In this document: piece after piece, positions 14,931-22,255 of the stretch
Layout: every line of letters starts with the position of its first letter
How positions within the stretch are numbered: the stretch's first letter is position 1
Virus record (IMG/VR): IMGVR_UViG_2703718836_000001
Reading direction: 5' to 3' (one strand)
DNA length: 22,661 nt
Origin: a virus
Taxonomy: Duplodnaviria > Heunggongvirae > Uroviricota > Caudoviricetes
Translations under genes and position numbers: made by a program
The notes under the pieces: model-generated
What the model was told of the DNA's origin: nothing
Databases searched by the model: none
What the model saw: only the letters and a program-made list of their open reading frames with translations

Positions 14931-16664
14931 TTAAAGCGAGCGGATCCCATAGGACTCAATGTGGTCAGACAGCGTGTCTTCTTTCTCGTACAGCATGGCT
15001 CTGCCAACCGCCATAATCAGCGCAACTGCACCATCGATTTTGTTTTCCGCCTGCTCTTTGACGGGCTTCACCACATCATCGTTACCCGGAATGGTTTTGC
15101 CGACCACGTTGCCGATACACCAGGTCATGATGGGATTGCCATCATGATGAAAGCGCCCCGATTCAATTGCCGCTTCCAGCTCTTTCATCGGGTCGGACAT
15201 GTTGGTGTAGTTCTGAATGATAGTGATGGGGTTCAGGTCTTCATCAGCAAGGTCATGTGACAACCCGGTCGCCCCGAAGGGGTCGATGGGTGACTCACTG
15301 ACCGGGCTGATTTTGTTCGCCGCTTTGGCCTCCTCGAGGATGTAGCGATAATCCACCTCCGCACCATCGGTAACGGTCAGAACGCCCATTTCCACCCATT
15401 TCTGAAAGCGTTCGGCTGTCCGTCGATCTTCATTTTTCTCGACGCTGTACACCGTGTCATACGGTACCCAGAAACGCGGGGCCACACTGTAGTAATGCGT
15501 TTTACCGTCAATCTCGCGGGTATAAAGTCGCGCCATGCTGTTCATATCCAGCTTACGCGCCAGGTCAAAGGCCAGAATGCACGGCTGCCCCTCGAACTGC
15601 TCAAGGGTCAGTGATTTATCCTCGCAGCTCTGCCAGCTCACCAGGTTGAAATACGCCGAACGCGCCGACACCCAGATATTGAGGTGTTTTGTTTTAAAGA
15701 CGTTTGCCAGACGGGCGTTATTTTTCGCACGCTGCTGCTGACTTAACAAAAATTCGCGATAAACCGACACGCCAATATTTGGATTGGCTTTTTCCAGCAC
15801 CTGCGGGTCGGTCCAGTCGTCACCTTCATCAACGGTATAGATGATCCCGAACAGTTCATCATTAGGCACCGAGCCGTTGAGCATCTCGATTACTTCCCGC
15901 CGTTTGTCGTAGCACGGCCCCTCAATGTTGTACCCGGCGGTAGTGATAGCCCACATCAGTGGCTGACGTCGCGCCCCCATCCCGGTAAGCATCGTGGTGT
16001 AAAGCGCATCTGTGGCGTGCTCGTGATATTCATCCACCACCGCACAGTGGGGTGATGAACCATCACCGGGGTTACCGATCAGCGGTTCAAAACGCGCACC
16101 ATCCTCCGGACGGTTCATGTTTGAGGCGTTAACCTCAATCCCGAACGCTTCCGTCAGCATGGGTGTGCGTTTACACATCAGTCTTGCCGGACGAAAGACT
16201 TCCCATGCCTGTTTCTCCGTCGTGGCACCGGAATACACTTCCGCGCCGAACTCGTTATCACAGGCAAAACAATACAGGGCGACACCGGCAGAGATTGCCG
16301 ATTTGCCGTTCTTACGGGGGATTTCGGTATACACCTCCCGGAAGCGGCGCAGCCGGGAGCCTTTATTGACCCAGCCAAACGCGCAGCAGATCACAAAGAG
16401 CTGCCACGGCTCCAGCGTGATGGGCATCCTCTTAAATGCCCACTCACCCTTGGTGTGCGGCAACAGCTGAATAAATTTGGCGGCCCGTTCAGCCAGGTCC
16501 TTGTCGAAGCGGTAACGAAACGACTTACTTTTTTCCGCCATCAGGTCATCAAGATGGCGCTGGCAGGCCTGAATCACAAACTGGCAGGCCACAATCTTTC
16601 CGCGCACGACATCCCGGGCATACTGATTGGCAGCATTTACGTTGGGGTAAGATTTCCGGCTCAT
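14931..16664 (-). CDS. Terminase large subunit
   Basis: 577 aa; Walker A-like IPRKNGKSA; ATGA overlap with the TerS stop. Confidence 0.9.
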
Positions 16665-17155
16665 GATTCGATAATTTTCAGAAACGGGTTAGTGGCTTTC
16701 TTCTTCCCCGCAAGGCCAATCAGACGCTGGCGGCTGCTGGGGTCGAGTCCGAGCATTGCCCCCGTACTGCTCATCTCGGACTCCTGTTCTTTTTTGGCGG
16801 TCAGCTCCGGATTTTTGACCATACCGCCCATTGCACCGGTGATGGTGTTGCCCTGTCTGGCAATATTTTTCACGGCACGTCGCCAGAACTCGTAGGCCAC
16901 GCACCACCGCTCAAGCACCGCGAGGTCAGTCACGCACAGCAGGCCCTGACCGCAGAGTTCTTTAGTTGTCAGTTGCCACATGATCGTAGCGAGAGGGAGA
17001 TCTTCTTCAGCGAACCACTCCGGTGGCTCAACACCTTTGATGGGCGTAAAAACAGGTTCATCTTTATTCAGGGCTCGCTTGCCGGGGTTTCCGGCCAGCG
17101 CCTTGCGCGCCGTTGGCTTGGGGCGACGCCCGGAACGCCCCGCCGTTCCAGCCAT
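16661..17155 (-). CDS. Terminase small subunit (P27 family)
   Basis: N-terminal [29 protein letters not shown] motif; ORF track start at 17164 is GTG, while the ATG at 17155 has an AGGAG RBS about 10 nt upstream. Confidence 0.8.
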
Positions 17156-17164
17156 ATGCGGCAC

Positions 17165-17280: not shown

Positions 17281-17631
17281 TCACTTAAGCCGTTCACGGG
17301 CCGTCTTCGCCTTATGGCACGGCCAGCACAGACTCTGCAGATTACTGTCGGCATCAGTGCCGCCATGTGCTTTAGGGATGATGTGGTCAACGGTTTTCGC
17401 TTCACGCGCCACACCAGCACGCAGACATAACTGACAAAGGCCTTTGTCACGTTGCAGCACACGCACGCGAATAACATCCCACTTAGAACCATAACCGCGC
17501 TGATGACGGGATTGTCCTGGCTTGTATTGCTTCCAGCCCTCGCTTTTGTGGCTTTCGCAGTAGCCTGACGGGTCTGTGGTGGTATGGCGGCAGCCACGAA
17601 CGCGGCAGGCTTTTGGGGTTCGTGGGGGCAT
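17281..17631 (-). CDS. HNH endonuclease (terminase-associated, HK97 gp74-like)
   Basis: 116 aa with Cys/His motifs CRVRGC...C..H, DHIIPKAHGG, N...LCWPCH; directly upstream of cos and TerS. Confidence 0.85.
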   Translation of the reverse strand: MPPRTPKACRVRGCRHTTTDPSGYCESHKSEGWKQYKPGQSRHQRGYGSKWDVIRVRVLQRDKGLCQLCLRAGVAREAKTVDHIIPKAHGGTDADSNLQSLCWPCHKAKTARERLK

Positions 17632-17644
17632 TGGACACTATCGT

Positions 17645-17672
17645 TGCTTATGTTTATAAAAAAAGCCCTGCT
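17645..17672 (-). terminator. Intrinsic terminator after the small acidic ORF
   Basis: Stem GCCCTGC / GCAGGGC (17655-17672) with loop TTAC, followed on the minus strand by a 7-nt U-tract (plus A-run 17648-17654). Confidence 0.5.
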
Positions 17673-17710
17673 TACGCAGGGCATAAAAACTCAATATTGA
17701 TACTATGAAT

Positions 17711-17941
17711 CTATTCCAAATCCCAACGTGGAATATTTATTATCTTACCAGGAGTTAAGGAAAATTTGGCTTTCTTCAATATCTCAACATTAGCATCATC
17801 AGGAATCACTAAGAAGTACGAATAGTGCATTTCTCCAGAATTCCCATGATTCTCCTGAATATCATCTTCGCTAACTCCCGACGCTTCAAGCTCATCAACT
17901 GTGAGTCCTAAATAATCAGCTAGCTTTTGTATATCAATCAT
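17711..17941 (-). CDS. Hypothetical small acidic protein (orphan, AT-rich)
   Basis: 76 aa, about 15 Asp/Glu; ATG at 17941 with GAGGTG RBS 4 nt upstream; followed by its own terminator. Confidence 0.5.
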   Translation of the reverse strand: MIDIQKLADYLGLTVDELEASGVSEDDIQENHGNSGEMHYSYFLVIPDDANVEILKKAKFSLTPGKIINIPRWDLE

Positions 17942-18240
17942 TAATCACCTCACATATCAACGATGAGGCATCATCATCACACACTCTAGCAAAAGCTTCA
18001 ACTTATTGTTATTATTAAAATAATTCTATACAAATTACATCTAATGTATATCCTATGATACGATAGATGCGAATATTAATGACAAACAACCATCGTATTT
18101 CTCTGAAAAATGGCAAGTATCACTCATTATTCCCCATGCATCTATGTACTCTGTTCATGGTCAAGCCATAACTATATTTAATGCAAGAATACGGAAAGTT
18201 AAACAAATAAACGTTGATACACTAACATTCCACAAACTAG

Positions 18241-18534
18241 TTATACTAATGAAGTAGGCAATTCTTCCTCTGAAATTCCCAATACTCTCCTATCGGCCCG
18301 CAATTTTGCTATAGCGCACACTTCACTATAAGATGGTGCGGAGTTCTCAGGATAAAGTACATACTCAAAATGCGGCGGAGGATTGAATATTAAAACTGAA
18401 TACCCAGCTTCTTGAAGGATATTTTGGACGATTGAATAATAAGGTCTACGCTCATCAAACCAATAACATCCATTCCTTTCTATTGACACGATTGCTTTTT
18501 TTGCGTGCTTCTTATAAACCCATGCCTTATCCAT
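18241..18534 (-). CDS. Hypothetical protein (orphan, AT-rich)
   Basis: 97-aa ORF; weak RBS; two CTACGTA motifs just upstream; no family recognised. Confidence 0.4.
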   Translation of the reverse strand: MDKAWVYKKHAKKAIVSIERNGCYWFDERRPYYSIVQNILQEAGYSVLIFNPPPHFEYVLYPENSAPSYSEVCAIAKLRADRRVLGISEEELPTSLV

Positions 18535-18682
18535 ATCCTGTCAAAAATCTCTCTACGTAATTGAACAATAACACTACGTAGTAGTCATACACCAGAATAT
18601 CTAACATATCAATCCAGCAACATTTAATTATTTTAACTTAATATGAAAAAGTCTTCAGTGATTATAATTTCACACCTATATA

Positions 18683-18973
18683 TCAATTCAGTAACTTTTC
18701 AGAGCCTGTGGCCAGTCTTTGGACACGCTGTTGTTGGACAATAGCTCGAATATGAGACTTGTCCGTATTACATTGCCCTAATGCAGATAACAAGCTCGCA
18801 TTTAAGTTGAGACTTGCACCATACGTCAGAGGGTCTGGTATGAGCGGTATAGGTGTTTCAGAAATCAAACTAGTTGGTAGTGGTGTAACCGGAGTGCTCA
18901 CGTAAACTGTCCGCGTACTTCCGCAACCGATCAGCAGCGGCAGCAGGCACAGGACGTGAAGCACAATCATCAT
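18683..18973 (-). CDS. Rz1-like o-spanin (outer-membrane lipoprotein)
   Basis: From the internal Met of ORF 18683..19141: MMIVLHVLCLLPLLIGCGS... (hydrophobic signal plus lipobox-like LIGC), Pro-rich mature part; starts inside the Rz gene in another frame. Exact start uncertain (a TTG two codons upstream is possible). Confidence 0.55.
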   Translation of the reverse strand: MMIVLHVLCLLPLLIGCGSTRTVYVSTPVTPLPTSLISETPIPLIPDPLTYGASLNLNASLLSALGQCNTDKSHIRAIVQQQRVQRLATGSEKLLN

Positions 18974-19250
18974 CCGCAATAGCCATTTTGATATCTTCCT
19001 GGGTTCTCTGTGACTCCAGTGCGATCTGCTGTTTTGCATGCTGGTTAGCCTCCAGAACTGTATTGAAGATTTGTAGTGATTGCAGGACGTTATTGGTAAT
19101 GGCTGTTGCTGATTCAGCATTTCGTACAGCCTCATCAGCACGTTTCTTTTCGTGCTGATATTTGCTGTAGTAGTGGTTGGCAGACCAGATGAAAGAACCG
19201 ATGACAGTAAAGATGAATGCAGAGATAGCCAGCTTATAGCTCAACTTCAT
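18870..19250 (-). CDS. Rz-like i-spanin
   Basis: 126 aa; N-terminal TM segment LAISAFIFTVIGSFIW then helical periplasmic domain; immediately downstream of the endolysin. Confidence 0.7.
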   Translation of the reverse strand: MKLSYKLAISAFIFTVIGSFIWSANHYYSKYQHEKKRADEAVRNAESATAITNNVLQSLQIFNTVLEANQHAKQQIALESQRTQEDIKMAIADDDCASRPVPAAAADRLRKYADSLREHSGYTTTN

Positions 19251-20145: not shown

Positions 20146-21537
20146 TCACTTAATAGGATTTGGTTTTATGTCGTCAAGCCAGTCGTTATCACCTCTTAGC
20201 TTGGCTACTCGTCCTTCAACATTAGTTAACGGTTTATAAGCAGAGTATTTGCCTATAGCCCTAGCAGAATGCTCTCCAGCAACACGATAATTTTGGAAGT
20301 CCAACTCAAGTCCATGCTGCTCCGCTCTCATTCGAATATAGCCACGAAGCATGTTTTCTCTAAATCGAAACCAAGATGGACGATTCCCTAAAGCAGGGAT
20401 GATGATGCATCCAAATGTCGGTTTCTTCAATGCATTGAACTTTCGCTCAAACGTGGATTTATCTAAAGGTGTTACATCAAGCGATTTGCAAATTTTAACG
20501 TACGATTCTGATATATGAGTCTTATGTCTGGTCAAATCAGCCATATCGGACATAGCCCAAAGAATATGCTTATATGACTCATCACGTCCCTCTGTTGCAT
20601 CCGTGTAACTTTGCCTTAAAGTTTCCGAGACTGAATCAATTGCATCATTTAACCCTTTAATGAAAAGGTTGTAGTCAACAGAGCTGTATTCACGTATTGA
20701 GCTTTGACATGTTAAAAGGATTTTTTCACAAATAAGATGAATGTAGTTCGGGAACCCGTCACTAAGACCCGCAATTTTATAGCGGACAGAATCATCGACA
20801 GTCAGGCCAAACTCATCGAAAGCATTATCAATTATTTGAAAACGACCATTCCATGGTAAACTATCGAGATGTACCTGATGTATTTGTCGCTCACTTGATT
20901 TATGCCCTCCGATTAAAGTAACGAGAGAATCACCAATCCCCGTAAAAATTAATTTTACTTCACACGCCTGATCACCAAGTTGCTTAATGAGTGATCCAAA
21001 CTTTTGTCGTTCTTCATCAGAGTCAATTTGGTCAAACTCATCGATAACTATATAAGGAATCTTTGAGTGAACTTTAGTTAAAAATTGCAACGCCCGAACG
21101 GCTGCAGAAACTGAGTCAATTTTCAGTTCTGGATAATTATATTTTTGATTTTGACCAGCATTGATACCACCAATTCCAGCCACATTTAAGCCAAAGCTCC
21201 ATCCCTGTGTATCGATTTTCTTATCCTGAGGTGTGCCTCGCAAAATAATGTCATTCATGACACTTGAAAAAGTGGATTCTTTCTCGCAGCCAACCAAAAT
21301 AGGTTCAGCATCTTCCTGCAGCTTAAAAGCAACAGTTTGCGCTAAGGATGTCTTTCCTACTCCGCGATCACCATAAATGAAAGCATGCCGACCTGTAGCA
21401 TAAAGCGCCAATTCGAGATCGGTTACATGTTTTTCACGTCCAAATAACAGTTCCATAGAAACAACTGGACCCGTTGGTCGCAAAACTTTATGCAGTTTAT
21501 GCATAAAGTCTCGCAAAGAAAGACCTCCACAGAGCAT
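20146..21537 (-). CDS. P-loop NTPase, AAA+/ATPase_2 (Arch_ATPase)-like N-terminal domain with uncharacterised C-terminal half
   Basis: 463 aa; Walker A GDRGVGKTS preceded by LLFGREKHV, Walker B YIVIDEFDQ, sensor-1-like LIFTG. AGGAGA RBS 6 nt upstream of the ATG. AT-rich (one hand-counted 60-nt stretch about 37% GC, against about 65% on a sampled stretch of the sheath gene). Confidence 0.8.
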   Translation of the reverse strand: MLCGGLSLRDFMHKLHKVLRPTGPVVSMELLFGREKHVTDLELALYATGRHAFIYGDRGVGKTSLAQTVAFKLQEDAEPILVGCEKESTFSSVMNDIILRGTPQDKKIDTQGWSFGLNVAGIGGINAGQNQKYNYPELKIDSVSAAVRALQFLTKVHSKIPYIVIDEFDQIDSDEERQKFGSLIKQLGDQACEVKLIFTGIGDSLVTLIGGHKSSERQIHQVHLDSLPWNGRFQIIDNAFDEFGLTVDDSVRYKIAGLSDGFPNYIHLICEKILLTCQSSIREYSSVDYNLFIKGLNDAIDSVSETLRQSYTDATEGRDESYKHILWAMSDMADLTRHKTHISESYVKICKSLDVTPLDKSTFERKFNALKKPTFGCIIIPALGNRPSWFRFRENMLRGYIRMRAEQHGLELDFQNYRVAGEHSARAIGKYSAYKPLTNVEGRVAKLRGDNDWLDDIKPNPIK

Positions 21538-21676: not shown

Positions 21677-22255
21677 TCAAGCACTTTCTTGCTCACTTTG
21701 CAATTTAAATCTGTCGCTATTTGTGCCAAACGCATCACATAGTGGAGCGTACAGGAGCGATTCGGCCAAACTTATCCATGTGTCAACTCGGCGGCGACAG
21801 GTAATGAATGCCCAGTCAGGATGTTTAATATGAAGCTCATTGGCCATTTGCAACTTGCTCTTACGCAGACGATACCGGCCAACAATCACACCGTATAGAG
21901 AACGGTAATCATTATTCATCAGCACCGAGGCGATCACACCGTCAATCTTCAGGCCTTCATCGTCCGAGCAAAACGCCAGACTACTTTTGTTTTTACTGTT
22001 GAGTATTTCGCGCAAATAAGCTTCGAGCTCTGGTTTCGTAATGCCTGACTTTTTCATACGGCGCAGCGCATCGTTGATTGCAGTTTTGGTAATTTTGCTG
22101 GATACAAGCAGTTGGTTAAACATGTTACCGCTAGTCCCTCCACTGATATAAGACCAACGCCCCCACATGCGGAGCTTCCCCTGAACCCAGATACTTTCCA
22201 GAGTACGAAGACGAACCATTTCACCCGTTTTGCCAATTTCAGAAGGATTAATCAT
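21677..22255 (-). CDS. Putative late-gene antiterminator (Q-like)
   Basis: 192 aa; position between the nin-region protein and the late promoter/lysis cassette; LRMWGRW resembles the ERWGAW motif of 21-type Q proteins. Family assignment is tentative. Confidence 0.45.
   Translation of the reverse strand: MINPSEIGKTGEMVRLRTLESIWVQGKLRMWGRWSYISGGTSGNMFNQLLVSSKITKTAINDALRRMKKSGITKPELEAYLREILNSKNKSSLAFCSDDEGLKIDGVIASVLMNNDYRSLYGVIVGRYRLRKSKLQMANELHIKHPDWAFITCRRRVDTWISLAESLLYAPLCDAFGTNSDRFKLQSEQESA

Follow-up and report, generated by a model that had tools for sequence, protein, structure and literature searches.

ORF76, a moron-borne acidic protein of a lambdoid Escherichia coli prophage, and the domain family to which it belongs

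Phage morons, a concept of Hendrix and Juhala, are exemplified by bor and lom of phage lambda and by gene 15 of HK97, and the junction between lysis and terminase genes is a general hotspot for cargo, as lambda bor and other morons illustrate. A gene at this junction, ORF76, lies on the minus strand at 17711..17941 of the 22,661-nucleotide stretch of caudoviricete DNA analysed here (IMG/VR record IMGVR_UViG_2703718836_000001; hereafter the window). Like the morons named above, the ORF76 cassette consists of a promoter region, one open reading frame (ORF) and a terminator inserted between two late-operon genes, has a distinct base composition, is present in only some otherwise near-identical prophages, and occupies the same lysis-to-packaging junction as lambda bor. 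Unlike them, it encodes a soluble, acidic, cytoplasmic protein instead of a membrane protein or lipoprotein. As a genetic element it reads as a textbook moron, with a lysogen-active promoter that is only predicted, and its product may tentatively be viewed as a protein-binding module in conflicts between mobile genetic elements (MGEs) and their hosts.

Several described proteins resemble the product in part. Ocr, ArdA, T7 Gp5.9 and Arn are likewise small, strongly acidic, carried by MGEs and devoid of enzymatic motifs, but ORF76 has no sequence or fold similarity to them, is predicted to form a compact alpha/beta fold and is encoded at a late-region site. Phage T4 Dmd is an antitoxin that neutralises the HEPN toxins RnlA and LsoA. 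Both it and ORF76 are phage proteins of about 60-80 amino acids (aa); in two relatives (P0026, P0027) the ORF76-like domain is joined to a HEPN-like domain, which suggests that it may contact or regulate RNases of this type. However, ORF76 has no similarity to any Protein Data Bank (PDB) chain, and the HEPN assignment of its fused relatives is weak (E 7e-4). Type II antitoxins recall the helix-turn-helix (HTH) and zinc-ribbon architectures of the ORF76 family and the GNAT gene found 120 bp downstream of family members on Vibrio and Photobacterium plasmids, whereas ORF76 itself has neither a DNA-binding domain nor an adjacent toxin: the hallmark of such antitoxins, a cognate toxin gene in the operon, is missing, the neighbours being ORF97 and, past the terminator, an HNH endonuclease gene.

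The effector-associated and Death-like adaptor domains of prokaryotic conflict systems offer a further comparison (PMC7159879, PMC8195603). Like these, the small ORF76 domain exists by itself as well as attached to a HEPN-like effector and to the NTPase HerA of immune systems. The likeness is one of architecture: no match above noise to the Pfam effector-associated or Death models was obtained, and the two fusion partners were seen only in different loci.

The ORF76 cassette and its signals

ORF76 starts with ATG and encodes a 76-aa acidic protein belonging to PHROG 31861. Its Shine-Dalgarno sequence, GAGGTGAT (17951-17944, minus strand), can be read directly from the DNA and comprises 8 nt complementary to the 3' end of 16S rRNA, with 4 nt separating GAGGTG from the ATG at 17941; GAGGTGA is unchanged across the copies designated L003-L006. 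Downstream, a scan of the sequence detects an intrinsic terminator on the minus strand, GCCCTGC-GTAA-GCAGGGC (stem-loop 17682-17665) followed by seven T residues (17664-17658). Its stem of seven pairs, six of them G-C, begins 28 bases past the stop codon, and the 61-nt stretch containing it has a folding energy of -18 kcal/mol (z = -4.2 against shuffled sequences). In L003 and L006 the stem is invariant and the loop variable, and analogous dedicated terminators lie 3' of distant family members in L007 (Yersinia-type) and in L008-type loci. Aspartate and glutamate make up 15 of the 76 residues (19.7%) against six lysines and arginines, giving an isoelectric point of 4.4 and a net charge of -9. 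Because hydrophobic runs never exceed 8 residues, the protein is soluble and without a signal peptide.

Most of these features had been recognised in the original prediction, which placed a 76-aa frame at 17711..17941 without naming its strand, described a well-spaced GAGGTG ribosome-binding site and a perfect 7-bp stem followed by U7, and estimated the acidic content at about 20%. All of them stand, as does its view that ORF76 is a real, independently terminated gene in an accessory slot. Compared with four diverged copies (L003, L006, L035 and L036; 76-80% protein identity), ORF76 has a ratio of non-synonymous to synonymous substitution rates (dN/dS) of 0.14-0.22 at a dS of 0.6-0.8, and identities of 85, 95 and 67% at the first, second and third codon positions. 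ORF76 is thus a real gene under purifying selection. Low GC content, short length and few homologues might have marked it as a spurious or decaying frame in AT-rich junk DNA. That explanation is effectively refuted already by the dN/dS values, the contrast between second and third codon positions (95% against 67%), the retention of a strong Shine-Dalgarno sequence and terminator in diverged copies, a confident and reproducible predicted fold, and profile matches in Gamma- and Betaproteobacteria whose identity goes as low as about 35%.

The limits of the cassette emerge from alignment with the 76-80% relatives, whose lambda-like prophages have Nu1/gpA terminases. The homologous segment sets in sharply 100 nt 5' of the ATG and stops at the terminator, which delimits a minus-strand cassette of about 380 bp (17658-18040) made up of promoter region, Shine-Dalgarno sequence, ORF76 and terminator. 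The conserved upstream block of about 100 nt (17942..18040, minus strand; promoter and 5' untranslated region) travels with ORF76. Identity is 90% from -100 to -51, 80% in the coding sequence, 67% at third codon positions and 25% beyond -100. Within this block, sequence reading and conservation point to a candidate extended -10 promoter at 17973..18001 (minus strand), with a -35 element TTGAAG (18001-17996), a 17-nt spacer and an extended -10 element TGt-GATGAT (17981-17973); an AT-rich UP-like stretch lies upstream of the -35 (18003-18030). All elements and their spacing are kept in L003 and L006, and the site scores 8 of 12 matches, which is under the scan threshold. In an alternative promoter-like site that the scan did report (TATACA, 16 nt, TAGAAT; 18050-18023, minus strand), the -35 falls beyond the conserved block and is not retained in L003 or L006. 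The site at 17973..18001 is, on the present authors' reading of the sequence, a plausible ORF76 promoter.

The cassette forms part of an AT-rich accessory island between the Rz/Rz1 and HNH genes (17640..18700) that comprises two modules, ORF97 and the ORF76 cassette, and has a GC content of 0.32-0.40 against 0.50-0.60 in both flanks. Of 5,426 complete E. coli genomes, 8 have the island, and the same number is obtained for the ORF76 cassette alone, whereas 115 match the first 33-34 nt of the query, which cover the adjoining start of the HNH gene. In a related prophage, that of E. coli PS1Thumoskin9, the same slot between Rz and HNH (L002 4183-5960) contains another hypothetical gene of 111 aa on the opposite strand together with an IS3 element; the different cargo there identifies the slot as a cargo hotspot. 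The AT-rich island, the distribution and the variable slot cargo underlie the accessory status given above. Promoter region, Shine-Dalgarno sequence, ORF and terminator together make the layout that of a classical moron, and the cassette shows insertion between conserved genes, absence from close relatives, distinct base composition and a terminator of its own.

A rare acidic domain and its fusion partners

The original prediction regarded ORF76 as an orphan of no recognised family, which proved incorrect: residues 1-76 match the PHROG 31861 profile (function unknown) over 83 profile positions with an E of 9.6e-36, and distant relatives exist. PHROG 31861 is the only family match, Pfam, NCBIfam and PADLOC yielding none, and no enzyme, membrane, virion or lysis family was matched in these three databases or in PHROG. 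The domain is rare, amounting to about 45 clusters among billions of proteins. A word-indexed protein search returned four close clusters only; 1.84 billion representatives, searched exhaustively with an HMMER profile, gave 24 matches, about 21 of them credible, and a profile search of a set of 5.8 billion proteins gave 25. All 23 aligned relatives match PHROG 31861 and none matches a Pfam family, where only noise was obtained, including two weak DUF1127 matches (E 0.0065). Their consensus reads LAxYLxLTxEELEExGxxxxDIxEDxGSSGEMxYSYYFxVPxxTPxxILxKxxWxxGxxIxIP, and acidity is family-wide, with net charges of -6 to -27 in 22 of the 23 members. Hosts belong to the Enterobacterales, Vibrionales, Oceanospirillales and Alteromonadales, and for the fused form also to the Betaproteobacteria and Xanthomonas. 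The contexts (prophages, plasmids, an integrative and conjugative element (ICE) and immune-type fusions) suggest that, some chromosomal copies aside, the family is largely tied to mobile elements and conflict. Neither the RefSeq accession nor the PHROG identifier, nor DUF932/DUF2958 in connection with anti-defence, led to any publication in a literature search.

An AlphaFold2 model built on a shallow alignment has a mean predicted local distance difference test score (pLDDT) of 84, and a second model, built on an independent alignment of 24 sequences, has a pLDDT of 80 and the same topology, H-H-E-E-H-E-H. The predicted elements are helices at residues 4-11 and 15-21, a hairpin (28-32/40-45) whose tip is the conserved loop G-[NS]-S-G-E-M, a short helix, a strand at 67-71 and a C-terminal helix. 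According to these models, the ORF76 product has a compact alpha/beta fold. Structure prediction and comparison had been proposed as a route to its identity; the model is confident, but it matches none of the solved and viral structures compared, and phmmer and profile searches of PDB sequences returned only low-complexity and designed-repeat noise.

ORF76 is a stand-alone copy of a domain of about 70 aa that is also present in multi-domain proteins. In two HEPN-type fusions (P0026, P0027), 35% identical to each other over both domains, it precedes a region of about 190 aa with a conserved Rx4H motif that matches HEPN_RiboL-PSP weakly, over nearly the whole profile (E 7e-4, under the gathering score). 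The two fusion genes are followed by different, unrelated genes. In another locus (L055 89-2558) the domain forms the C-terminal extension of a HerA ATPase (DUF87, E 4e-19; HerA_C, E 4e-13), and a SIR2_2-like gene (E 2e-4), cut by the end of the contig, lies upstream. As read from the sequence, this layout is that of a SIR2-HerA antiphage pair, with the SIR2_2 assignment coming from the truncated gene; a ResIII/DEAD helicase gene and an HTH gene adjoin it. No C-terminal HerA domain is described in the classification of SIR2-HerA systems (PMC13434337). The HEPN-like and HerA fusions were seen in different loci only, and the contigs are short.

Other copies follow nucleic-acid-binding modules. 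The domain stands after an Xre-type HTH in P0024, L017 and L049, after a YozE_SAM_like domain in one architecture, and, in plasmid proteins of 127 aa, after a zinc ribbon with four cysteines (L041 3997-4380; L042 and L043 6824-7207). On a 5-kb ColKP3 mobilisable Enterobacter plasmid, one zinc-ribbon fusion is the sole accessory gene that has an annotation; its immediate neighbourhood contains no annotated gene, and an unannotated ORF of 133 aa without a Pfam match converges on it. On the Vibrio and Photobacterium megaplasmids the GNAT gene downstream of the zinc-ribbon fusion encodes 166 aa and its GNAT match is marginal; the two genes lie beside restriction-modification (RM)-like and HipA genes.

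The domain also ends an ICE-type protein of about 308-310 aa whose N-terminal 230 aa or so belong to no family (L020-L031, for example L025 4311-5237); its C-terminus aligns with the ORF76 family at an hhalign probability of 66% (E 5e-5). The gene lies between DUF932/ParB_N and DUF2958 genes, beside an AAA_13/SMC-like ATPase. Because the protein is nearly identical in Hydrogenophaga, Variovorax, Pigmentiphaga, Vogesella, Xanthomonas and other genera, it has probably spread recently on one mobile element. An analogue of 311 aa occurs on an Enterobacter IncF plasmid.

Since the domain is found alone, on nucleic-acid-binding modules and on an immune effector and ATPase, it would best be understood as a module that mediates protein-protein contacts or regulation in conflict systems, without a catalytic signature. 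The ORF76 protein may be an inhibitor or decoy that binds another protein in MGE-host conflict, in counter-defence or as an anti-toxin, and this tentative reading is the one preferred here. The solo phage copy would bind an immune or toxin protein of the host or of a rival MGE that carries or recognises the same domain, and would blunt its activation. It would be made in the lysogen from its own promoter, and in lytic growth also through Q-antiterminated read-through of the late transcript, while the terminator would shield the HNH and terminase genes from moron transcription in the lysogen. Such a role is consistent with the cassette, its accessory status and recurrent placement, the acidity of the family, the domain fusions and the lack of enzyme, membrane, virion or lysis matches. 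Several observations weigh against it. ORF76 shares no homology with anti-defence proteins or antitoxins that have been characterised, its neighbourhood encodes no cognate target, and the fusion evidence is thin, consisting of two HEPN-like proteins (E 7e-4) and one SIR2-HerA locus (E 2e-4). Some family members sit in ordinary chromosomal contexts, and tblastn with ORF76 and with P0029 found no match in 50,697 sequenced phage genomes, so that use by lytic phages is undocumented. A late-region place combined with an own promoter would also fit a moron that protects the lysogen.

A bolder extension holds that the ORF76-like domain is an undescribed immune adaptor or sensor on HEPN RNases and SIR2-HerA systems, and that the domain-only copies on MGEs act as dominant-negative decoys. 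They would then be counterparts of the viral or cellular CARD-only and death-fold-only inhibitors, with a fold that has no solved relative. This extension seems unlikely.

The charge of the protein raises a different alternative, namely a DNA mimic of the Ocr, ArdA, Gp5.9 or Arn kind whose acidic surface would resemble B-DNA and titrate restriction, BREX or RecBCD-type enzymes. A net charge of -9 over 76 aa, acidity maintained throughout the family, and carriage by MGEs, including the DUF932/ParB_N/DUF2958 region of an ICE as well as large conjugative plasmids, where it lies beside RM-like genes, would suit such a protein. Against this, ORF76 falls in no DNA-mimic family model of Pfam, NCBIfam or PHROG and its predicted fold is unlike that of a solved DNA mimic, which makes the alternative quite improbable. 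The earlier suggestion of a DNA mimic or an inhibitor of host defences thus survives in its second half, to which the fusions and the family acidity lend conditional support, and loses its first for want of sequence or fold similarity.

Position in the prophage and neighbouring genes

ORF76 sits in the Q-dependent late operon of a lambdoid E. coli prophage whose head genes are HK97-like. Read along the minus strand, the order is DUF968, Q antiterminator (21677-22255), AAA_16 ATPase, lambda-type holin, lysozyme, Rz/Rz1, ORF97 and ORF76, followed by the HNH endonuclease, P27-type small terminase, large terminase, portal, protease, capsid and onward. The upstream flank is the end of the lysis cassette, the Rz (DUF2570) and Rz1/LysC spanin genes (18683..19250, minus strand); the downstream flank is the HNH gene (17281..17631, minus strand), the first of the packaging module, which continues with TerS (16661-17164) and TerL (14931-16664).

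At least 13 prophages have a family member in the gap from the lysis cassette to the terminase genes, counting the window, L003, L006, L007, L008/L009, L016 and the IMG/VR loci L035-L040 (L032 is the prophage of the window). Most of these copies are transcribed in the direction of the late operon. The copies in Halomonas and Salinicola prophages fill the same gap on the strand opposite to every neighbour, so that they must be transcribed independently, each from a promoter of its own. In Yersinia-type and related prophages the lysis cassette is separated from the family member by a pRha-family gene (L007 5296-5829, L037 3172-3705, L039 3713-4273); the one in L007 ends 170 bp upstream of the family member.

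This constant and mostly co-directional placement could be taken to mean that ORF76 serves a late function of the phage itself, for instance by modulating HNH/terminase cos cleavage or the lysis cassette. The flanking terminases, however, are of at least five unrelated kinds (P27 with HNH, Nu1/gpA, gpA-like, Terminase_2/3 and others) and leave no common partner, ORF76 is absent from most close relatives of the window prophage, and the gene is on the opposite strand in some prophages. Plasmids, ICEs and chromosomes that lack packaging and lysis genes carry family members as well. Homology to a structural or lysis accessory protein, which according to the original prediction would have spoken against a role in defence or regulation, was looked for in Pfam, PHROG and by structure search, and no similarity to a known lysis, packaging or structural family was found. 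The unrelated terminases and the non-phage occurrences instead suggest that the position is a general cargo hotspot at the junction of the genome ends, as this junction is in other phages, and a packaging or lysis role is very improbable.

The main alternative is a lysogenic-conversion moron that benefits the lysogen, either as a component or sensor-like modulator in superinfection exclusion or defence or as a small connector that retunes a regulatory or stress pathway of the host. The classical moron layout, with an own terminator just upstream of packaging genes, agrees with such a role, as do the Halomonas and Salinicola copies and the occurrence of the domain as part of defence proteins. 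The chromosomal copies point the same way: in Pantoea they lie among ymgB/AriR-type genes, and in Erwiniaceae near catalase, DUF892 and KGG stress genes with a hydrophilic partner of 66 aa. A second candidate cargo gene in the window, the AAA_16 ATPase, can be added. Yet a protein of 76 aa that lacks any effector, membrane or DNA-binding feature cannot by itself exclude phages, no conserved partner gene accompanies the family member across prophages, and PADLOC gives no match. A benefit to the lysogen is accordingly a serious but somewhat doubtful alternative to the inhibitor or decoy preferred here.

In the Erwiniaceae (L013 5740-5940, L014 1461-1661, L016 5759-5959) the family member is always found 60 bp downstream of the gene for the 66-aa protein, which is highly hydrophilic and probably disordered (MKAHNTNEQRKKEGD...). 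The two may form a two-gene unit.

The second module of the island, ORF97 (18241..18534, minus strand), encodes a hypothetical protein of 97 aa and is a separate AT-rich module 300 bp upstream of ORF76, with a weak Shine-Dalgarno sequence (AGGA, 2 nt before the ATG). Only near-identical E. coli copies of it were found among 5.8 billion proteins, with no family match, and it is absent beside the ORF76 relatives in L003, L006, L007 and L008. A toxin-antitoxin pair of ORF97 and ORF76 was considered and rejected, as the two are separate modules and ORF97 never stands beside ORF76 relatives.

Between Q and the holin gene, the AAA_16/STAND-like P-loop ATPase (20146-21537, minus strand; 463 aa; phrog_6841, of unknown function) is encoded by an AT-rich gene (GC about 0.36-0.43). 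In the otherwise near-identical prophage of E. coli 0-4, accession NZ_CP076262, this slot holds a DNA methyltransferase instead. The ATPase gene is a candidate for a one-gene defence of the prophage or for cargo. Its pairing with ORF76 as defence and self-immunity was rejected, since the ORF76 cassette also occurs in prophages with the DNA methyltransferase at that place. An Rfam search of 17500-18800 gave nothing near threshold, and a repeat scan of the island gave nothing above chance for AT-rich DNA.

Implications for mobile elements and their hosts

The kind of element represented by the ORF76 cassette is known, while its protein family is catalogued but uncharacterised, and lacks both a Pfam model and a structural relative. 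Were the solo domain to block immune or toxin proteins that share it, it would found a new anti-defence family. HEPN and SIR2-HerA systems would then have a new regulatory domain whose fold is missing from the PDB, and ORF76 could serve as bait or decoy for studying how these systems are gated. Should ORF76 instead be a factor that benefits the lysogen, it would be another small cytoplasmic moron product, a class in which very few members have known targets. Either way, the ORF76 cassette provides a clean, minimal example of a moron, with mapped boundaries and a conserved promoter block.
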